Source: Candidatus Woesearchaeota archaeon
GTDB taxonomy: Archaea; Nanobdellota; Nanobdellia; Woesearchaeales; WJIZ01
Direction of reading: 5' to 3'
Length of the DNA: 53,216 nt
Assembly (NCBI GenBank): GCA_018221205.1
Contig: JAAOYF010000028.1
Location: 1 to 53,216 of the forward strand
Shown here in pieces: positions 37,888 to 44,882 of the stretch (position 1 is the first letter of the stretch; each line of letters starts with the position of its first letter). The position numbers and the translations under genes were made by a program. The notes beneath the pieces were generated by a model. That model did not search any database and was not told where the DNA came from. It saw only the letters and a program-made list of their open reading frames with translations.

Positions 37888-38541
37888 TTATTTATTACTC
37901 TCCGGTTGTGCTTTGAATGTCACTTCCTTGATGGAAGGGATCACTTCTTTGATCTTTTTCATCACTTCAACCTGCAACGGCTTCTGGAGAGTCATCTCAA
38001 CCTCTGCCTTTCCTTCTTTTATACTTGCCTTAACCTCTTTATGGCCTAAGCTGATCTTGAGGAATCCTTTGAGCTTGTCGATATCATCTTCCACTTTCTT
38101 CAGGATCTTCACTTGGTAGATGAGGGTCTTTCCAGACAATGGATGATTGAAATCAACCAATATCCTGCCGCCTGTAACTGTCTTTATCACTCCAGTCAGG
38201 CCATCCACATTGATCTGCAGACCAGGCATAGGATCGATCTTTTGATCGCGAAATTTTCTTGCCGGGATGAGCTGCACTAATTTAGCAGATTTCTTGCCAA
38301 AACCCTTTTCTGCAGGAAGTGTGATATCGTATTCTTTACCCACTTCCTTATCCAGAAGTTCGTGCTCAAGGCCCTCTAACAATTGGCCCTGACCCAGGCA
38401 GATGACAATTGGTCCGAAGATGGAAGTAGGAGAATCTATTCCAGTCTCTTTTGCCAGCTCTTCATTTGTGGTGTCAAAGACCTGGTGGTCTTCAGTCTCT
38501 CCCGTATAGGTTATTTCGATGAAATCGTTGTTCTTGAACAT
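37888..38541 (-). CDS. long-type archaeal FKBP peptidyl-prolyl isomerase (SlyD-like)
   Basis: YTG..VFDTT, GLE..L, VDFNHPLSGKTL. Confidence 0.93.
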   Translation of the reverse strand: MFKNNDFIEITYTGETEDHQVFDTTNEELAKETGIDSPTSIFGPIVICLGQGQLLEGLEHELLDKEVGKEYDITLPAEKGFGKKSAKLVQLIPARKFRDQKIDPMPGLQINVDGLTGVIKTVTGGRILVDFNHPLSGKTLIYQVKILKKVEDDIDKLKGFLKISLGHKEVKASIKEGKAEVEMTLQKPLQVEVMKKIKEVIPSIKEVTFKAQPESNK

Positions 38542-38625
38542 TTTTTAGTTCCTTCTAGCTCGTCTTAAATGACTCAGAAGAATTTGTTTTAGTGTTGTTA
38601 TTTGATTTATAAAGGTATCGGATTG

Positions 38626-39207
38626 CTAGAAATGTGCTCGGCCTATCTTGAGCGAGAGAATAAATTTCCTCGCAGTCTCGATCTGCTTGTCATGTGTGAA
38701 GTTTCTATCTTCGTCCATGACTTTTCCCATCCGTTTGCATATGTGGTGGAAGGGCTTTCCTGCATGTTGAACCCATTGCCTACCGATGAAAGAGACTGGG
38801 TCTGACAAAGGCTCAGGATTGACTTCTTCAGGATGCAATGGGGTTGCTACACCATATTCAAAAACTGCCATCAGCTTTGGAAGAGCTTCAATGAGGAAGC
38901 CTGCATTGTCTCTATAATGCGTAGGTAGAAATCTTGCCATTATATTCCTGACTTCATGCAATTGTGTGACAAGCATTTGACTGAATTGTCCTTTATGAAC
39001 CTGAAGCAAGCTGCCACTTACTTCATCATAGTGTTTATCGAAACTCTTATCGAATAATCTTGCCAATCTACCTTTCTCATCAATTCTCAGTTCAGCATGT
39101 ACAAGAAATATATGATTAAAGTCATCTTTCGCTGCTTCAAAATCTAATTTTTGAACTATCTTTCTAACTTTGGGTTCTTTTACTTTCTGCTCTGCTTCGA
39201 TGGCCAT
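38626..39207 (-). CDS. hypothetical protein coupled to cmk
   Basis: TAATG overlap with the cmk stop; no motif recognised. Confidence 0.7.
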   Translation of the reverse strand: MAIEAEQKVKEPKVRKIVQKLDFEAAKDDFNHIFLVHAELRIDEKGRLARLFDKSFDKHYDEVSGSLLQVHKGQFSQMLVTQLHEVRNIMARFLPTHYRDNAGFLIEALPKLMAVFEYGVATPLHPEEVNPEPLSDPVSFIGRQWVQHAGKPFHHICKRMGKVMDEDRNFTHDKQIETARKFILSLKIGRAHF

Positions 39208-39737
39208 TACTTTCTCACTTTCTTCACTATTTTCTCTATCGCTTGCTCTGGTGTTATGCTTGTTGTGTCGATGATGAGGTCGAAATCACTTTTTGTAGGA
39301 AAATCGATGCCGTAATATTCTTTATACCTGATATTCTCAGACCTCATCCTTTCTTTGACATATTTTTCTGCCTCTTTCTGGCTCTTGTATCTCTCTTCTG
39401 CCCTCCTATGGCCTATGATCCTCTTGGCAGCCTCTTTCAGATTGACATTCAAGAATATCTTATATGAATCCGGGATGAAATGAAACCCTAACCTGGAGTC
39501 GATGACAAAACCGTCATGCTCCTGTCCGAACTTCACTTGCTTTTCGTCTAATTCTTCATCGATGGTCGAGTCAACCTCAGCCCTCTTCGAGAGATCCATG
39601 ATGGTGAGATGTCTTTTCTTCGCGATCCCCCTCATAAAGTCGCCGATAGAAACAAATTCCAATCTCAGTTTTTTAGCGAGCATCTTGGAGACGGTGCTTT
39701 TGCCTGAACCCACAGCCCCCGATACCGTGATTTTCAT
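39207..39737 (-). CDS. cmk: cytidylate kinase (archaeal type)
   Basis: ITVSGAVGSGKST, DSRLG, RYKEYYGID, DLIIDT. Confidence 0.93.
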   Translation of the reverse strand: MKITVSGAVGSGKSTVSKMLAKKLRLEFVSIGDFMRGIAKKRHLTIMDLSKRAEVDSTIDEELDEKQVKFGQEHDGFVIDSRLGFHFIPDSYKIFLNVNLKEAAKRIIGHRRAEERYKSQKEAEKYVKERMRSENIRYKEYYGIDFPTKSDFDLIIDTTSITPEQAIEKIVKKVRK

Positions 39738-39818
39738 AATTTTGCCAGAAGAAATATTCTTTATAAATGTTGTTAATTTTTGAGCTGTTAAGTTAGCGTC
39801 ATCTGAGGTATAAAAAAA

Positions 39819-40016
39819 TTAATCCATAAAATATTTTGAATATTTATTTTTTAGATGTGATAACTTTTCTTTATCAATCTGCTCTCCGAATTTCTTTATG
39901 ACAGTTAGATATGCATCTACTCTACCTAAATTACTTTCTGGTGCCGAATTATAATTTTCAATAACTGCTTCAAATTGTTCAACACAGTATTCAAAAATGT
40001 CTTTTGCATCTACCAT
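39819..40016 (-). CDS. 65-aa hypothetical cargo protein
   Basis: SD AGGAGGA; directly downstream of the AbrB gene. Confidence 0.7.
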   Translation of the reverse strand: MVDAKDIFEYCVEQFEAVIENYNSAPESNLGRVDAYLTVIKKFGEQIDKEKLSHLKNKYSKYFMD

Positions 40017-40025
40017 TTATTCCTC

Positions 40026-40187
40026 CTAATCCCTCTCAATAATCAGCTTTCCTTTCTTAACTTCAGCTTCCAGTTCTTCCCCTTCCTTCCAGCCCAATTT
40101 CTCTATGGTGCTAGGCTTTACAACAATAACATACTTAGCATATTCCTTATCCCCTACTTTTCGAGAAAGCTGTTTTTGGAGCTTCAT
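40026..40187 (-). CDS. 53-aa AbrB/MazE/SpoVT-family DNA-binding protein (not in ORF track)
   Basis: MKLQKQLSRKVGDKEYAKYVIVVKPSTIEKLGWKEGEELEAEVKKGKLIIERD; LGWxxGxxL motif. Confidence 0.85.
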   Translation of the reverse strand: MKLQKQLSRKVGDKEYAKYVIVVKPSTIEKLGWKEGEELEAEVKKGKLIIERD

Positions 40188-40195
40188 AATGGGTA

Positions 40196-40232
40196 TAGGT
40201 ACCTACTAGTATAAATAATTTTCGGTACCGAA
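40196..40232 (-). promoter_or_regulatory. abrB promoter bracketed by GGTACC palindromes
   Basis: TAGGTACCTA (40196-40205) and TTCGGTACCGAA (40221-40232) flank TTTATACT. Confidence 0.75.
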
Positions 40233-40321
40233 GGCTTTTACAAAGAGATAATTGAACTGTAGAGTAAAAGTCAGGAAAAGCTAAATTAATAAATAAATAT
40301 TTTTATTTTTAGAAAACATGT

Positions 40322-40489
40322 TTAATGTTTTGCTAATTCTTTAAATAATACTTCGTCTTCTTTAAACACTATTTCTTTAGCTACTTTAACCAATTCTAAT
40401 AACTTTTTATCGTTTTTAGAAATTTCATAAACTTCTTTTTCTGTAAGTTTATATGTATCCTTTTTTTCTTCATTTTTCATTTTCATCAT
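40322..40489 (-). CDS. 55-aa putative antitoxin-like peptide downstream of the Doc gene
   Basis: Overlaps the toxin stop; ends ..EDEVLFKELAKH, resembling Phd-type neutralising helices. Confidence 0.6.
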   Translation of the reverse strand: MMKMKNEEKKDTYKLTEKEVYEISKNDKKLLELVKVAKEIVFKEDEVLFKELAKH

Positions 40490-41090
40490 TTTCCAGAGTT
40501 ATAGTAACAAAAACACCATTTAAATAATTTGCTATATCTTTATCTTCAATCATAACACAATTCCTATCCAACCATTCTTTTATTTCTTGAAAAGTTACTT
40601 TACTTTCATATTTTGCGACCTCTAAAATAAAAGTAACTGCTTCATTAAATTGTATCCTCAAATGGCATTTATTGACTAACATAAAGATCTTTGCTATTGC
40701 ATAAGCCACTCTTTTATTACCATCTGTAAAGTAATGACGTTTAGCAAATTCATTCAAGGCAAAGGTTCCTATACTAGTGGGATTTCTTTGGTTCTTATAT
40801 TGATGGTTTATTAGTTTATAAGTTGAATTGTATATGCCTCCTCTATCCCTAATTCCATGTTCTCCACCACTTAATTCAATTATAGTGTCGTGAACCCTTA
40901 TAATCATCTCTTCCATTTTTAGTACAATGCCTTTGGATATTCTTTTTCTAGGTTTATTCCAATAAGGACTATGGCATTTTGGGTTTGGACAAGAATTGGG
41001 GTTTTGTTCTTTTCTTCTTTTCCAAGTATGGTAACATCTAAAACAAAATAGTATATTATCATTATTAACCATATGTGTATTGTTAACCAT
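40470..41090 (-). CDS. Doc/Fic-family protein with N-terminal zinc ribbon
   Basis: HYFTDGNKRVA Doc-type motif, HD..I..SGG..GIRD; CFRC..W...CPNPKC.SPYW. Confidence 0.9.
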   Translation of the reverse strand: MVNNTHMVNNDNILFCFRCYHTWKRRKEQNPNSCPNPKCHSPYWNKPRKRISKGIVLKMEEMIIRVHDTIIELSGGEHGIRDRGGIYNSTYKLINHQYKNQRNPTSIGTFALNEFAKRHYFTDGNKRVAYAIAKIFMLVNKCHLRIQFNEAVTFILEVAKYESKVTFQEIKEWLDRNCVMIEDKDIANYLNGVFVTITLENDENEK

Positions 41091-41132
41091 ATGTGGTTGG
41101 AAATAACCATATACATTTAAATCTTTCTATTG

Positions 41133-41166
41133 TATATTGTATGGTTATATCTAACCATACAATATA
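41133..41166. promoter_or_regulatory. perfect 15-bp inverted repeat upstream of the doc promoter
   Basis: TATATTGTATGGTTA-TATC-TAACCATACAATATA; further TAACCATA copies at 41066, 41084 and 41104. Confidence 0.75.
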
Positions 41167-41167
41167 T

Positions 41168-41263
41168 TAGCTACCTATCCTTTATAAGTATTTCGGTACC
41201 TAAAACTATACTTCTCAATAGATATGATTAGGTACCTAAGTATTTATATACGTTAGGTACCTA
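41168..41263. promoter_or_regulatory. divergent promoter pair with four GGTACC-type palindromes
   Basis: Cores at 41170 (GCTACC), 41195, 41231 and 41256; each pair is 25 bp apart around a TATA box. Confidence 0.75.
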
Positions 41264-41272
41264 CTAATACAT

Positions 41273-42169
41273 ATGAAACAAACAACCAAATGTAAGCATT
41301 GTGGCGAAAGCCACTACATAAAAAAGGGATTTCGTAAAACAGAAAATCGTGGCAAAATTCAGAAATATAAGTGCTTAGATTGTGGAATGTATTTTACTAG
41401 TGATGAAGGCTTTTATAGAATGAGAAACTCTGAAAAGAAGATAACTCAAGCCATAGACCTTTACTTCTCTAATCTCTCAAGCAGAAAGGTAAGAAACTTC
41501 TTTAGAAGGCATTTAGACCACAATGCAAGCCATATAACAGTATTGGATTGGTGTAGAAGGTATGTTCTAAAGGTACAGAAGTATGTGAATAAACTACACC
41601 CAGAATTAAGTGGAGAGTTCTATGCAGATGAAACAGAGATACCAAGAGGATGTAACACTAAAAGAAAAGGTGGCGATAAATTCTGGTGTGCGGTTGATTG
41701 GGGAACAAGATACATCAACGCTACTCTTTATTCACCTAATAATCAGAGTGTAGACGAAGCGGTTGAATTTTTGAAGAAAACAACAAAACACAGAAAGCCA
41801 AAATTTATCCAAACAGATGCAGCACAATTTTATCCAAAAGCAATGAAGAAACTTTTTAGTTCTTGTATCCCTCATGAAACTACATTCGGAAAAAGAACGA
41901 CAGTAGAACATCGTATTAACAACGTCAGAAAGACAGGAAAACATAATGTAAGGATTGAAACCGTATTCTCGAAAATTAAGGACAGAGTTGATGATTTTCG
42001 AGGGTTGAAAGCGTTATGGAGTGCCCCTATCCTCATGGAAGGCATTATCATACAACACAACTGGATTGAAGCCCATACAACAACAGGAAGGATACCCTCA
42101 GAACTGGCAGGGATGAAGATTGATACAGGGGCTAATCGGTGGTTAGGGATGATTAAATCTTCCTTATAA
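41273..42169 (+). CDS. IS6-family-like DDE transposase with N-terminal zinc ribbon
   Basis: CKHC..CLDC, HTH (LSSRKV..TVLDW), ADET, QTD, NVRIE, HN..H..P. Confidence 0.9.
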   Translation: MKQTTKCKHCGESHYIKKGFRKTENRGKIQKYKCLDCGMYFTSDEGFYRMRNSEKKITQAIDLYFSNLSSRKVRNFFRRHLDHNASHITVLDWCRRYVLKVQKYVNKLHPELSGEFYADETEIPRGCNTKRKGGDKFWCAVDWGTRYINATLYSPNNQSVDEAVEFLKKTTKHRKPKFIQTDAAQFYPKAMKKLFSSCIPHETTFGKRTTVEHRINNVRKTGKHNVRIETVFSKIKDRVDDFRGLKALWSAPILMEGIIIQHNWIEAHTTTGRIPSELAGMKIDTGANRWLGMIKSSL

Positions 42170-43052
42170 TTCTTAATTCCGTAAATTTTTTCTGTTTTTT
42201 CAGTTTTTCTAGCTCCTTTAAAATTATATCATTAATCTTTTTATTAAACTTTGAATTTTTTGAACTGACCTCTAACTTATCTTCTGCTATAGTAATCCAA
42301 TTAGCATAGGAATCTCCAAACATCCAAAAAAGGAAAGGAGAGTAGATTCTTATTTTACAAAAGTTACTATCATAGTCAAAAGAATCTTTAATTTTTAACT
42401 TCTTGTTCCCGAAAAAGCCCTTCTTGCTAAAAGACTTTCTAAAAATTGCTAAAAGGTCCCTATTTTTAGCTAATTTAAACCTATAAGTGTAGATATTTTT
42501 TAACAAATCTTTATTATAATGGAAATGAAGAGCTACGGAAATTGTAATTAGAATAAGCCCAACAAGCGCCATTGAATAAAGTATAATGTTATTTGAAAGT
42601 AGGTTAATTGCTTGAATTTCATATGGAAGTCTTTCTGTTAGTGTGAGTGCTGAAAAATTTACTTCATTCCTATTTAGAACAGTTGTATAAGCTTGTGTTT
42701 CACTAATCTTCAACAGAAATTGTAATCCTGCTTCAACCATAAGGGAAATCCCAATACCTAAAAGAATTCCTGTGAAGAAAGTATTAATTTTTCTCTTTTT
42801 TTGCTGTTCATCAGGAAGCGTTAAATGAATATCAGTAACCTTATTTTTAATATCATCCAAATCCTTCTTAATTTCGTTTGTGTTAGTTGCCACGAATATC
42901 CTCAATATGTTCACTAGACATACTAAGGTATTATACCCCCCTATTTTAATAATTATCTCATTTACATATATAAATCCAGCGAGTATAGCAAAAAAAGACC
43001 ATATCAATAAAAAAGGCAACAAGAAGTAAGTTATAACAACCCAGTTCTCCAT
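42153..43052 (-). CDS. cargo membrane protein, 2-3 TM (start may be GTG 42893)
   Basis: AT-rich ORF with hydrophobic segments; GAGGAT precedes GTG 42893. Confidence 0.7.
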   Translation of the reverse strand: MENWVVITYFLLPFLLIWSFFAILAGFIYVNEIIIKIGGYNTLVCLVNILRIFVATNTNEIKKDLDDIKNKVTDIHLTLPDEQQKKRKINTFFTGILLGIGISLMVEAGLQFLLKISETQAYTTVLNRNEVNFSALTLTERLPYEIQAINLLSNNIILYSMALVGLILITISVALHFHYNKDLLKNIYTYRFKLAKNRDLLAIFRKSFSKKGFFGNKKLKIKDSFDYDSNFCKIRIYSPFLFWMFGDSYANWITIAEDKLEVSSKNSKFNKKINDIILKELEKLKKQKKFTELRIIRKI

Positions 43053-43080
43053 CCGTAGGTGACGTTTACTTAACAGCCCA

Positions 43081-43863
43081 TTAATTTTTCAGACCAGGAT
43101 TTCCGCAGATCCTGATGGCAGTGACGAAGAGAATCAAGTAGAGCGTGATCGCGATCCAGGAGAAATAAACTCCCACCAGGGGTGATTGGACAATAAGATA
43201 GCTCTTGAAGTCAAACGGAATAGTAAGAACCTCGATGAGGATCATGATGGTCGCAGTATGGAACGAAAGAGAGAGCACTTGGGGGAGAGTCACGATGTTC
43301 TTCATCGGCTTGGCGAAGGCATAGAAGAGAAATGCCAGGGGATAGATGATCAGGACGTATTTGACCATATAGGTGAAGAAGAGGAAGACAAAAACACTGG
43401 GCAAGAGGAGCGTGAAGATCAGGATAGTAATTCTTTTTGAGCTTTCCCTGTCAGCGGTGAAATCATATTCACCGAGATCAATGGTCCCTTCCTGGAACCC
43501 TATATCATAGAACAGCCTTTCGTTCGTCAGGAGGAGCACTTCTGTGTCGATCTGTTTGGTATCGGTCGTGTCCAACGTTATAATAGGATTAGTATTGGGC
43601 AGGGAGACGGGCTGGGCAGTCTCGAAATCTGCCTTGATCTTCAGTTCTGCGATGTTCAAGAGAGCCTGATCGAGCTCAGTCTTTATCAGCAGCATCTTCG
43701 GAGCAGCGATGACCAGCATGAGCAGTAATGCGCTAAAGAGCACTGCGAGGAAATATGTTATTGCACTGGAGACTCTCCTCTCCCCTATATAGATATAATA
43801 CCTCGGATGCAGACTCTTCAGGATAAGAAAGATAAAATGCTTCAGCTTTGATCTAACGCCCAT
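43081..43863 (-). CDS. multi-TM membrane protein (DUF1189-like layout)
   Basis: TM, extracellular domain, then 4 TM; stop codon lies inside the TSD. Confidence 0.75.
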   Translation of the reverse strand: MGVRSKLKHFIFLILKSLHPRYYIYIGERRVSSAITYFLAVLFSALLLMLVIAAPKMLLIKTELDQALLNIAELKIKADFETAQPVSLPNTNPIITLDTTDTKQIDTEVLLLTNERLFYDIGFQEGTIDLGEYDFTADRESSKRITILIFTLLLPSVFVFLFFTYMVKYVLIIYPLAFLFYAFAKPMKNIVTLPQVLSLSFHTATIMILIEVLTIPFDFKSYLIVQSPLVGVYFSWIAITLYLILFVTAIRICGNPGLKN

Positions 43864-44882
43864 GTATCTATGACCTCTTTTTCTAATGCTATGATATCAT
43901 TTACCTTGTTTATATTTCTTTCGTCTATCATCTCCTTGAAGAGGACAGAGCTCTGGCGGAATTTTCCTGCCTGCTCCTTATCGTCCAGCCAGTCTGCCAG
44001 CGCTTTCCGGGTGATGAAGCCCTGTTTCAGCTGCTGCTCTGATAGCTCCCTTTTCAATACATTATGGCTGAGGAGGATATCTTTCCTTATGGTGACTTTT
44101 GCCTCTTCCTCGTCTATGGGATCACTTTCCCTCAAGACATACCAGGTGAACAGAGGGCCATAGTCATTCACCTCACTCAGCCATCCGTCGTAGAAATCCT
44201 GGGGAGTGATATCAAGATAAGAAGCGCCGGCCAAGGTGGGGTTGTTGATCTTGATATTCTGATCGTAGCCTACAACCGGAACGAAGATAGGGTCATGGAA
44301 CTTCTCTTTCTCCTGCTGGTATCTCCGCAGCAGTTCGTGATGGAGGTAAAAACGGTCGACTGCGACTATAGGCACTGCATTGGATGAGGTTATCAGCTGG
44401 AGATAGACGATGCTGCCCTGGCCTTTTATGGGGGTGGCTTTGAGATCGTATTTTGCATAGAACTGCCTCAGCTTGCTATTCAGCTCTGCACTTGCGTAGA
44501 ATGCCTTGAATCCATAAAGGGACAGGCGGCTGCCCAAGAATTCTTCCAGGGAGGCACCTTTATCATCCAGCTTAGCAGCCCCGGACAATGCGACGATAAA
44601 AGAATAGGGAAGATCAGGATTGAATCTCCTCATAGATACTGCAGTGGCAGCCACGAAATCAATGCACCCATTACATCCATCATAGATGTTCTCTACAGCC
44701 TTCACGGTATGGCTTGCTGGTGTCTCGGTCCTCAGCTTGAATTCAGGAAGATCTGTTGTCTCTTTTTCCTCAAATGTTCCGGCTGTGGAATTGAAGTCTT
44801 TTACACTCAACTGTACGGCTTGCGGAGTCTCATAGATGCAGCCAGCGAGAATGATAAGTGCAAGTAAAAAGAGAGTTTTCAT
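43842..44882 (-). CDS. lipoprotein with papain/C39-like fold signature, probably non-catalytic
   Basis: Lipobox IILAGC; PIVAVD, FVPVVGYD..I.INNP, F..GW. Confidence 0.6.
   Translation of the reverse strand: MKTLFLLALIILAGCIYETPQAVQLSVKDFNSTAGTFEEKETTDLPEFKLRTETPASHTVKAVENIYDGCNGCIDFVAATAVSMRRFNPDLPYSFIVALSGAAKLDDKGASLEEFLGSRLSLYGFKAFYASAELNSKLRQFYAKYDLKATPIKGQGSIVYLQLITSSNAVPIVAVDRFYLHHELLRRYQQEKEKFHDPIFVPVVGYDQNIKINNPTLAGASYLDITPQDFYDGWLSEVNDYGPLFTWYVLRESDPIDEEEAKVTIRKDILLSHNVLKRELSEQQLKQGFITRKALADWLDDKEQAGKFRQSSVLFKEMIDERNINKVNDIIALEKEVIDTWALDQS

Follow-up and report, generated by a model that had tools for sequence, protein, structure and literature searches.

A transposon with six open reading frames

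The window, i.e. the whole stretch of 53,216 nucleotides analysed here, contains a 3,300-bp transposon carried by a DPANN archaeon. The initial annotation had spoken of an element at this position, and the element is real, as it is delimited by inverted ends and an 8-bp target duplication. Its features are the following:

39773..39780: left copy of the 8-bp target-site duplication, TTAATTTT, identical to 43081-43088
39781..43080: host-genome transposon, IS6-like, six ORFs
39781..39804, plus strand: left terminal inverted repeat, 24 nt, TGAGCTGTTAAGTTAGCGTCATCT; the same repeat lies at both ends in most siblings
39819..40016, minus strand: 65-aa ORF downstream of abrB, without family match
40026..40187, minus strand: abrB, 53-aa AbrB/MazE-fold protein, proposed repressor
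40322..40489, minus strand: 55-aa ORF overlapping the 3' end of doc, weakly like a 41-aa ORF beside the Doc gene of stretch G057
40470..41090, minus strand: doc, Doc-family (Fic fold) toxin-like passenger gene with an N-terminal zinc ribbon
41273..42169, plus strand: IS6-like DDE transposase of 298 aa whose N-terminus includes a zinc finger
42153..43052, minus strand: 299-aa passenger ORF, membrane protein as predicted by sequence, without family match
43057..43080, minus strand: right terminal inverted repeat, 24 nt, identical to the left end at 20 of 24 positions
43081..43088: right copy of the target-site duplication, TTAATTTT

No other copy of the element was found in its own 1.28-Mb genome. 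Given that it is single-copy, its ends were not definable by a comparison of copies, and sibling elements were used instead. Further 8-bp target duplications flank the siblings L022, L026 and L029, and siblings with both ends located measure approximately 2-4.8 kb from end to end. The transposase reached 45.2 bits with Pfam PF13610 (cut-off 27) and 68.8 bits with the NCBIfam IS6 equivalog, which is below the cut-off of 125. The archaeal IS6-like motif E--F---K-R described by Harmer and Hall 2019 (PMC6807381) is present in the transposase ORF as ETVFSKIKDR, located after the catalytic E. Instead of the compact transposase-only layout of IS6, six ORFs occupy the element.

The Doc protein was recognized by PF02661 (31.1 bits, cut-off 24) and TIGR01550 (50.5 bits, cut-off 38.65). 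Among the 61 stretches searched by tblastn, the Doc domain was matched in the window and G057 only; the siblings L038, L039 and L078, all three of which lack AbrB, matched the Doc query in the zinc ribbon alone. With PADLOC, Doc gave a weak candidate-family match (PDC-M59B, E 2.4e-9) and nothing was obtained for the other five proteins of the element. A homologue of the 299-aa passenger protein is encoded in L032 (47% identity), while a tblastn-type search of the sibling stretches yielded no match to the 65-aa ORF. Among public sequencing runs, none on record as RNA matched the stretch. One run containing 0.71 of the sampled words produced low-depth contigs over 38500-44500, which are probably DNA and exhibit neither joints nor starts. 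The promoter and terminator scan returned 18 promoter-like sites versus 15.7 expected, using a bacterial model that is uninformative for an archaeon.

Three cassettes of paired sites

According to the initial annotation, six related palindromes form three cassettes in which two sites, 25-26 bp apart, enclose a TATA box. This arrangement was recovered, with five exact GGTACC words at 40198, 40224, 41195, 41231 and 41256 and a sixth site at 41170 that reads GCTACC and thus carries one mismatch. The start-to-start spacing within cassettes A, B and C is 26, 25 and 25 nt, respectively. The sites and neighbouring promoter features are:

40196..40205: cassette A proximal site TAGGTACCTA, -9 to -18 from the abrB ATG
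40210..40218, minus strand: cassette A TATA-like box, reading TTATTTATA on that strand
40222..40231: cassette A distal site TCGGTACCGA, which extends into the BRE position (CGAAAA)
41066..41159: second operator-like array, before doc; its TATA-like box (41115-41122) is surrounded by five TAACCATA words, three of them direct and two as an inverted pair
41168..41177: cassette B proximal site TAGCTACCTA, which deviates at one base and lies at -10 to -19 relative to a vestigial ATG (41158)
41181..41188, minus strand: cassette B TATA-like box, at the place where siblings have their abrB promoter
41193..41202: cassette B distal site TCGGTACCTA
41229..41238: cassette C distal site TAGGTACCTA, abutting the BRE position of the transposase promoter
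41243..41250, plus strand: cassette C TATA box TTTATATA, its centre 26.5 nt from the transposase ATG (41273)
41254..41263: cassette C proximal site TAGGTACCTA, located at -19 to -10 relative to the transposase ATG

The candidate sites lie 4 nt to either side of each TATA-like box. The centres of these boxes are located 25.5-26.5 nt from the ATGs at 40187, 41158 and 41273 (in cassette A, TTTATA at 40210-40215 is centred 25.5 nt from the abrB ATG), a distance expected for leaderless archaeal transcripts. The sites had also been said to overlap both the BRE and the start region. More precisely, the distal site abuts the BRE position or overlaps it by about 3 nt, and the proximal site is not on the start itself but placed between TATA and start, at approximately -9 to -19 from the ATG.

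The number of GGTACC words in the window, six versus 2.09 expected, is unremarkable on its own and was reached in five of 100 shuffles. Their clustering is distinctive: the genome carries 65 GGTACC in 1,281,894 bases, and pairs less than 200 bp apart occur only in these cassettes. For at least five GGTACC in 1,064 bp, the Poisson probability amounts to 3.6e-9; multiplied by the number of such windows, it becomes 4.4e-6. The longer word TNGGTACCNA is present nine times genome-wide, five times in the element and four times as isolated sites in G+C-rich, coding-looking sequence. The host promoter adjoining the element is devoid of GGTACC-type sites. A reading of the 39-nt inverted repeat 41165-41203 / 41228-41266 as an RNA structure or cruciform was rejected because its arms are two mirror-image promoter cassettes that lie upstream of both predicted starts. 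GGTACCTA was likewise ruled out as a transposase end, given that GGTACC is absent after 41261 and that the true ends are of other sequence.

Cassette B had been assigned to a leftward transcript towards doc. Both sites and the TATA-like box are indeed present, but the proposed assignment to doc calls for revision. The ATG at 41158 is in leaderless position and followed by 13 codons only, and judging from position and sequence the cassette is the ancestral abrB promoter that sibling elements possess. As doc has its own TATA-like box flanked by the different repeat TAACCATA, it is probably not controlled by AbrB alone. All five occurrences of TAACCATA in the window belong to this array (0.99 expected), and none of 100 shuffles reached five.

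Site cores and AbrB proteins in sibling elements

The 53-aa protein remained below the family cut-offs (PF04014: 21.7 bits versus 24.7, E 1.9e-4; TIGR01439: 18.9 bits versus 28.3), with MazE_antitoxin as the best family name in profile searches. A profile built from 24 homologues matched AbrB-N (1z0r) with an E-value of 0.0067 and MazE with 0.048-0.12. The AF2 model (pLDDT 93.8) has the order beta-beta-alpha-beta-beta, with strands at residues 2-11, 14-22, 39-44 and 47-52 and a helix at 25-31. Foldseek ranks 1-10 in the PDB were all MazE, AbrB-N, SpoVT, C56 or C68, with probabilities of up to 0.99 and weak E-values of 0.076-1.2. The 53 residues correspond to the DNA-binding domain alone, without a tail for a toxin. 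The homodimer prediction scored 0.44 versus 0.00 for the best of three controls. Among solved structures, 20 of 30 one-chain pairs and one of 23 single chains attained that mark; since dimers of the AbrB fold have already been solved, this pass may reflect likeness. The runs agreed in at least 96% of contacts, with a partner pLDDT of at least 73. The protein models as an AbrB/MazE swapped-hairpin dimer, whose predicted interface comprises residues 1-5 and 17-52 and therefore leaves residues 6-16 outside. The presumed specificity residues 7-12, which co-vary with the site core, are located on a hairpin outside the predicted interface.

To score the design in sibling elements, the 62 nt upstream of the transposase ATG were examined for two matching 8-mers (at most one mismatch) flanking an A/T hexamer. 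Two such sites around the TATA box of the transposase were present in 38 of 38 AbrB-bearing siblings and in none of ten siblings without AbrB. The proximal site (-10 to -19) was retained at all transposase promoters examined. The core is common to all sites within one element and different between elements, where GGTACC, GATACC, GGAACC, GGGTACC, GGGCACC and others were found; GATACC and GGAACC are non-palindromic, so that a symmetric dimer is not an obvious explanation for them. A G+C-containing 7-mer is common to the abrB promoter and the element's own transposase promoter in 37 of 38 cases. Even where abrB is located 900-2,900 bp from the transposase gene, the private core recurs at the abrB promoter in eight of nine cases. 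The abrB promoter of L024 has no site. In a subgroup comprising L043, L045 and L050-L066, the abrB promoter retains the distal site only. Elements in which a zinc-ribbon gene replaces abrB have unrelated palindromes.

Over approximately 100 related elements, the site sequence changes with the AbrB protein and not with the transposase. The initial annotation had proposed to check whether the operator co-varies with AbrB in sibling elements, and the core indeed follows the AbrB tree rather than the transposase tree. When the GGTACC state was mapped on trees of 25 elements, it required one change on the AbrB tree versus five on the transposase tree, although independent class changes are few (about four on the AbrB tree) and the physical linkage of abrB to most operators leads one to expect some co-inheritance without any function. 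A single GGTACC clade on the transposase tree was rejected by the AU test (lnL difference 117.5, p 4.5e-66), and a tree of transposase residues 1-62 needs six changes. The clade L037/L039/L044, with a transposase support of 100, includes three different operator states. Each of the two N-terminal types of the transposase, GKIQ...GFYRMRN and GKQQ...GFWKMKN, occurs with GGTACC, GATACC and GGAACC cores.

A rule deriving the core from AbrB residues 7-12 was fixed before metagenomes were scanned. The metagenome set consisted of 38 non-duplicate new elements from the best 80 of 172 relatives. The rule applied to 23 of these 38 elements and was correct in 22. The proposed link between AbrB and the operators is supported by the 38 of 38 versus 0 of 10 occurrence of the design, the agreement of the trees, the eight of nine distant abrB promoters and the 22 of 23 correct predictions. 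In all 67 elements taken together, a glycine at residue 8 goes with GGAACC (8/8), a histidine with GGGTACC (8/8) and a serine with GGTACC or GATACC (49/50). A binary rule that had also been written beforehand, "residue 10 K/R/N = GGTACC", was wrong in five of 21 new elements and half right in one; its replacement, residue 8 plus context, is post hoc. L096 has GGTACC at only one of its two sites.

AbrB as a candidate repressor and its relation to known systems

We consider it likely that the transposon brings along its own transcription repressor, namely the 53-residue AbrB-fold product of 40026-40187. In the form of a swapped-hairpin homodimer, this protein would bind the 10-bp near-palindromes T(A/C)GGTACC(T/G)A, whose paired copies bracket the TATA boxes of abrB (A), of the transposase (C) and of the ancestral divergent promoter now pointing at doc (B). 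A first dimer would be positioned on or beside the BRE and a second between TATA and the leaderless start, so that both might jointly exclude TBP/TFB and RNA polymerase from the promoter. In this way, AbrB would negatively regulate its own gene and keep the transposase at a low level that depends on copy number. We infer the binding itself, its repressive sign and a brief de-repression of the transposase upon entry into a host cell without AbrB. The repression is deduced solely from where the sites sit. At a spacing of 25-26 nt, the two sites face roughly opposite sides of the helix, and cooperative binding is hence not evident.

Other regulatory modes would fit parts of these observations. 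Some archaeal activators bind around -40, and the centre of the distal site near -40 from the predicted start, together with the abrB promoters of L043, L045 and L050-L066 that keep the distal site alone, could indicate that bound AbrB activates or acts in a mixed manner, with the distal site recruiting TFB/TBP and only the proximal one being inhibitory. We regard this as improbable, because the proximal site, kept at all transposase promoters examined, occupies the region in which RNA polymerase and TFB have to load, and because promoter occlusion, with which the geometry of the sites is compatible, is the mechanism named for archaeal virus repressors (PMC5569661). The sites directly before the transposase gene might also be bound by the zinc finger/helix-turn-helix N-terminus of the transposase for autoregulation, with AbrB as a bystander. 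Transposases of several IS families do bind near their own promoters. Here, however, the core is at odds with the trees of the transposase and of its first 62 residues (five and six changes), both N-terminal types are found with the same three cores, and the same sites stand before abrB genes up to 1.9 kb away. The inverted ends, its obligatory target, are moreover unrelated in sequence to the sites, so its expected binding sites are elsewhere, and this explanation appears very unlikely.

We attach equally little weight to a toxin-antitoxin module, in which AbrB would be the antitoxin of Doc or of the 65-aa ORF and the sites an ordinary operator of a module that stabilises the element. The AbrB/MazE fold is common in antitoxins, MazE_antitoxin is the best family name and a Doc-family gene is part of the element; but among the stretches searched the Doc domain was matched in the window and G057 only, the 65-aa ORF was found in no sibling, and the protein has no toxin-binding tail. 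A conserved adjacency of abrB and a toxin gene was not seen in the 61 stretches, and in G001 nothing but abrB separates the element end from the transposase, without a partner. Furthermore, the sites stand at the transposase promoter too, and Doc is accompanied by a small ORF and an operator-like array of its own. That the sites are ordinary promoter elements, read by the basal machinery or by a transcription factor of the host, is extremely unlikely: the promoter position of the sites and nothing more speaks for it, whereas the host genome has no other such pair, the host promoter beside the element lacks the sites, and elements in related hosts have different cores, which follow the AbrB of each element.

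Going beyond repression by AbrB, it is conceivable, although we lean against it, that the elements form immunity groups as in temperate phages, each element carrying a private repressor-operator pair. These groups would include at least six AbrB site cores and also zinc-ribbon and further regulators, each with palindromes of its own, and the regulator module would have been exchanged between transposase lineages. If this is true, a resident copy would silence newcomers only when they belong to its class, and an element could escape by switching class. It would also reveal a natural code of swapped-hairpin recognition, in which residue 8 (S/G/H) and residues 7 and 10-12 are related to the central bases of the 10-mer. 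DNA recognition by the AbrB fold is poorly understood, and we know of no recognition code so far. The approximately 67 natural AbrB-operator pairs, each consisting of a 53-residue protein and a 10-bp site, are a ready specificity series; they might also give small, putatively orthogonal repressor-operator parts for archaeal genetics. DPANN archaea cannot be cultivated on their own, and next to nothing is known about how they regulate their genes. The cassettes provide explicit and conserved DPANN examples of BRE/TATA/leaderless-start promoters with candidate operators, and a whole archaeal branch of IS6-type transposases appears to use a dedicated trans-acting repressor.

A protein that is encoded by an element and acts between two divergent genes is familiar from the Tn3 family, where TnpR at res, between tnpA and tnpR, represses its own gene and that of the transposase. 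In contrast to the AbrB-like protein, TnpR is a bacterial serine recombinase that also resolves cointegrates, works at sigma-70 promoters and does not have the AbrB fold. C68 of the Sulfolobus element pSSVx and C56 of pSSVi, which are among the best structural matches to AbrB, are likewise small proteins consisting only of the swapped hairpin and encoded by archaeal mobile elements. C68 binds between its own and a divergent promoter, with a high-affinity site overlapping the BRE; its target TATG(C/GG)TTTTC is non-palindromic, and its transcriptional effect is given as unknown (PMC5569661). The C68 host is a plasmid-virus, whereas here a transposon carries paired near-palindromes around each TATA, that of the transposase promoter included.

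A tiny IS-encoded repressor has been described for IS605-family transposons by Moon, Zedaveinyte, Wiegand and Sternberg, where the ribbon-helix-helix protein Arc binds the promoter of its element and lowers the expression of mobility genes (bioRxiv 10.64898/2026.09.24.754181). The likeness lies in a tiny element-encoded protein at an element promoter, which in the present case is a putative repressor. The IS605 system differs in being bacterial, in its RHH fold and in its HUH TnpA plus TnpB chemistry, and its abstract does not speak of specificity classes differing between sister elements (10.64898/2026.09.24.754181). Genes of the AbrB/MazE or RHH type have also been found to precede tnpB in archaea (Altae-Tran et al., PNAS 2023, PMC10691335), again linking a small AbrB/MazE-family gene to a transposon-type gene. 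In that case, however, the TnpB has a rearranged catalytic site, and the account given of these genes favours a toxin-antitoxin-like reading and describes no operator design (PMC10691335). A literature search at the level of titles retrieved none that concerned a transposon of IS6-like or DPANN type with an AbrB repressor, and no paper combining DPANN, transposase and AbrB.

With IS6/IS26 and the contested archaeal "IS6-like" clades, the element shares the 8-bp duplication and terminal inverted repeats and, going by the Pfam profile, probably the IS240-type DDE domain. Classical IS6 members are 0.8-0.9 kb long and have one gene (Varani et al. 2021, PMC7986276; PMC6807381), and the IS6 review describes the control of transposase expression as little known and names one member with a passenger gene (PMC7986276). 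The present element differs from IS6 by its 3.3 kb, its six ORFs, the proposed repressor and ends that start with TG instead of GG, and by not reaching the NCBIfam IS6 equivalog cut-off. The N-domain of Bacillus subtilis AbrB and E. coli MazE have the same fold as the 53-aa protein by model and profile, and a dimer is predicted for the 53-aa protein as well. While AbrB is known for the want of a crisp consensus site, the candidate sites described here are crisp 10-mers, and the protein possesses neither a C-terminal oligomerisation part nor a toxin-binding one.

Paired sites around TATA-like boxes

Private, conserved sites lie on either side of the TATA boxes at the abrB and transposase promoters of the IS6-like transposon. 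The initial annotation had described six palindromes arranged as three cassettes, and three cassettes of this kind exist: each pair of sites surrounds an A/T-rich, TATA-like box, with GGTACC at five of the positions and GCTACC, not GGTACC, at the sixth (41170).

Features of the transposon (site positions from a word search of the window; ATGs of the cassettes read from the sequence)
39781-39804 and 43057-43080: terminal inverted repeats, 24 nt, 20 of 24 positions matching
First of six open reading frames: 65 aa
Second, 40026-40187, minus strand: abrB, 53 aa
40198 and 40224: cassette A, abrB promoter, ATG at 40187
Third: 55 aa
Fourth, 40470-41090, minus strand: Doc-family gene with N-terminal zinc ribbon (TIGR01550, 50.5 bits, above cut-off)
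41170 and 41195: cassette B, facing doc, vestigial ATG at 41158
41231 and 41256: cassette C, transposase promoter, ATG at 41273
Fifth: IS6-like DDE transposase (PF13610, 45.2 bits, above cut-off; NCBIfam IS6 equivalog below cut-off)
Sixth: 299 aa

In its 10-mer form, the site is the near-palindrome T(A/C)GGTACC(T/G)A. The number of GGTACC in the window is unremarkable by itself (6 versus 2.09 expected; 6 were reached in 5 of 100 shuffles), whereas the clustering is significant beyond chance: among the 65 GGTACC of the 1,281,894-base genome, pairs less than 200 bp apart are the element's alone, and the Poisson probability of at least five within 1,064 bp is 3.6e-9. Five of the nine genomic TNGGTACCNA sites also fall in the element. 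Genome-wide, GGTACC is about threefold rarer than predicted from base composition (65 vs 213), a scarcity that may reflect restriction avoidance; several other palindromes with four G+C are rarer than GGTACC (ACGCGT 23, CGTACG 30).

Read from the sequence, the box centre lies 25.5-26.5 nt from the ATG in every cassette, which is the spacing of a leaderless promoter in archaea. As originally proposed, the distal site touches the BRE position; the proximal site, which had been placed over the start, instead occupies the interval between TATA and start at -9 to -19. The cassettes are located within an A+T-rich island (G+C ~0.30 vs 0.43 in the flanks), whose limits are the two inverted repeats.

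The genome contains one copy of the element, with the 8-bp direct repeat TTAATTTT outside both inverted repeats. Most siblings are bounded by the same terminal repeat, and 8-bp duplications are visible in three of them (L022, L026, L029). At the junctions (read at 39760-39781 and 43081-43083), one side of the insertion has a host-gene stop codon, and on the other side a cytidylate-kinase-like gene has its TATA box 12 nt downstream of the insertion. The target duplication includes the stop codon, which belongs to the upstream host gene of 260 aa. At the right end of the element (43050-43080), the start of the 299-aa reading frame is 4 nt inside the inverted repeat; this leaves the frame no space within the element for a separate promoter, and it may be read from the upstream host gene.

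Co-variation of the site core with AbrB

Relatives of the transposase were present in 9 of 60 related genomes and at 58 loci in genome_contigs, the latter titled mostly Woese-, Pace-, Nano-, Aenigmat- and Nanohalarchaeota and in a few cases 'uncultured Methanosarcinales archaeon' or plain archaeon; from metagenomes, the best 80 of 172 stretches were kept. In the related genome G001, only abrB separates the element end from the divergent transposase gene, with GGTACC/GGTACA around the abrB TATA box and GGTACC/GGTACC around that of the transposase. The layout in G057 is the same, but with four AGGTATC sites and a different AbrB N-terminus. According to a profile search of the first sibling set, an AbrB-family ORF is present in 38 elements and absent in 10. 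A motif-free test (two 8-mers in direct or inverted orientation with at most one mismatch, separated by 22-38 nt, around an A/T hexamer and at most 62 nt from the transposase ATG) detected site pairs in 38/38 AbrB elements and 0/10 others, counts that lack independence given the kinship of the elements. These 10 elements carry other private palindromes, farther upstream, and other small genes (a zinc ribbon, or longer AbrB-like ORFs).

One core is common to all sites of an element, and cores vary between elements. The classes, set from the sequences ahead of any tree building, were GGTACC, GATACC/GGTATC, GGAACC/GGTTCC, GGGTACC(C), GGGCACC, CATGTACC, and GGACACC with GGTAACC. In siblings L065 and L067, the sites of a cassette are unequal (GGACACC upstream, GGTAACC or GGTTACC downstream) and the unequal pair recurs at the distant abrB promoter, so that the two site positions may not be equivalent.

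The co-variation of operator and AbrB anticipated for siblings was borne out by the trees. For 25 elements with both proteins complete (L018, L027, L060 and L066 were omitted due to a cut transposase), the state 'GGTACC' changed once on the AbrB tree versus five times on the transposase tree, and a four-state coding of the core required 4 versus 8 changes. When the tree was built from transposase residues 1-62 (28 elements), the GGTACC state changed six times. For the transposase tree, an AU test, run after a quick transposase tree had already been inspected, rejected a single GGTACC clade (lnL difference 117.5, p 4.5e-66). In the 29-row AbrB tree, a branch with support of 94/97 separates 18 GGTACC rows from 11 others. 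Different regulators accompany very close transposases, as in the clade L037/L039/L044 (support 100), and on the transposase tree the zinc-ribbon elements L051, L056 and L062 stand beside the GGTACC elements L050-L064 (clade support 99). Physical linkage of abrB and operator would explain part of the co-variation. However, of nine abrB genes at a distance of 900-2,900 bp from the start codon of the transposase, eight repeat the element's private core in the abrB promoter, the exception being L024.

The rule assigning a core to AbrB residues 7-12 was fixed ahead of the metagenome scan, in which 80 new loci gave 64 with a usable transposase start, 48 of these with a class-1 AbrB, and 38 elements after the removal of 10 duplicates (at least 95% identity). 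The four-class rule was correct in 22 of the 23 elements covered; the sole miss, L096, has GGTACC at one of two sites. Residue 10 was E, D or A in 16 elements, all 16 with a core other than plain GGTACC. The binary simplification, in which K, R or N at residue 10 predicts GGTACC, failed (n=21: 15 GGTACC, 1 partial, 5 GGTTCC). Residue 8 sorted the classes post hoc in 67 elements: G with GGAACC (8/8), H with GGGTACC (8/8), S with GGTACC or GATACC (49/50), and one T with a new core. At the level of sequence comparison, the sites co-vary with the AbrB hairpin, and the finding is of unusual value as a naturally occurring set of specificities for this fold.

The AbrB protein and its proposed action

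Sequence matches of the 53-aa protein to AbrB/MazE are below curated cut-offs; a 24-sequence profile matches AbrB-N at E 0.0067. AF2 gives a confident model (pLDDT 93.8) with the order beta-beta-alpha-beta-beta, and the top ten Foldseek matches in the PDB are all MazE, AbrB-N, SpoVT, C56 (pSSVi) or C68 (pSSVx), at weak E values of 0.076-1.2. The predicted homodimer scored 0.44 versus 0.00 for the best of three controls, passing a mark reached by 20/30 proteins solved as one-chain pairs and 1/23 solved as single chains, a pass that shows likeness, given that solved dimers of the AbrB fold exist. Contact agreement of the runs was at least 96% and partner pLDDT at least 73. The predicted interface comprises residues 1-5 and 17-52; outside it, residues 6-16 form the predicted hairpin tip, which holds the class-specific residues 7-12.

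We propose that AbrB dimers would bind the sites and block access both to the BRE/TATA region and to the region of polymerase loading, resulting in negative autoregulation of abrB and a low transposase level, and that an element arriving in a cell without AbrB would undergo a transposase burst. It is the position of the sites that suggests repression as the effect of AbrB on its promoters. The initial interpretation of an AbrB protein that represses itself, the transposase and a leftward transcript is supported in its core. The AbrB-dimer model does not account for the several cores that are non-palindromic, nor for the 25-26-nt spacing, which places the sites on roughly opposite helix faces.

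A precedent from Sulfolobus is C68, an AbrB-like factor of a mobile element that binds between divergent promoters (PMC5569661). A tiny repressor encoded by an insertion sequence, Arc, was recently shown for IS605 (bioRxiv 10.64898/2026.09.24.754181), and AbrB/MazE genes have been recorded upstream of archaeal tnpB (PMC10691335). A 2021 review of IS6-type elements describes the control of transposase expression as little known and mentions one member that carries a passenger gene (PMC7986276). A literature search by title found no published title on an AbrB-operator circuit in an IS6-like or DPANN transposon.

Cassette B, Doc and other control designs

By position and the flanking sequence CCTAAAACTATA, cassette B is the counterpart of the sibling abrB promoter. 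Downstream of it in the window, an ATG at the leaderless position is followed by 13 codons only, and doc starts 68 nt after this vestigial ATG. The pair facing doc was confirmed, but AbrB is probably not the sole control of Doc: a separate TATA-like box precedes doc (at 41115-41122, 28.5 nt from its start codon), with TAACCATA words on its flanks. The five occurrences of this word in the window all lie within 41066-41159 (direct at 41066, 41084 and 41104; inverted pair at 41140/41152). Since these words repeat the design of sites around a TATA box with another word, the Doc module probably includes a second regulator-operator pair. A separate regulator probably controls Doc, and AbrB may co-control the leftward transcript.

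The N-terminus of the Doc protein (residues 16-50 of the 40470-41090 product) is a CxxC...CPxC zinc ribbon homologous to stand-alone zinc-ribbon genes of 47-51 aa (L039, L051, L056, L062; contig C28 of the same genome), which in siblings take the place of abrB and are divergent to the transposase gene. In the window Doc, a putative regulator domain is fused to a toxin-like domain. Passengers directly behind a divergent AbrB-type cassette, as in the window, were also seen in L022 (3429-3803, 124 aa) and L024 (3287-3871, 194 aa), with abrB itself 0.9-2.9 kb off; judged by gene arrangement, cargo capture under the promoter of the proposed repressor is recurrent.

The same genome also has a second, distant IS6-like transposase (L016, G000:C28:71037-71912, 33% identity). 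A zinc-ribbon gene of 51 aa diverges from it, TAGTATAT-type repeats surround the TATA boxes, and the leader contains a stem-loop; one host thus carries two elements of different regulator classes. In a subfamily without the window-type AbrB (L032, L039, L040, L046; region ~40-110 nt before the transposase coding sequence), a single palindrome immediately follows the TATA box. The leader is long and contains a conserved, G+C-rich stem-loop, after which come GGAGG and the ATG, a different control design that may act on RNA.
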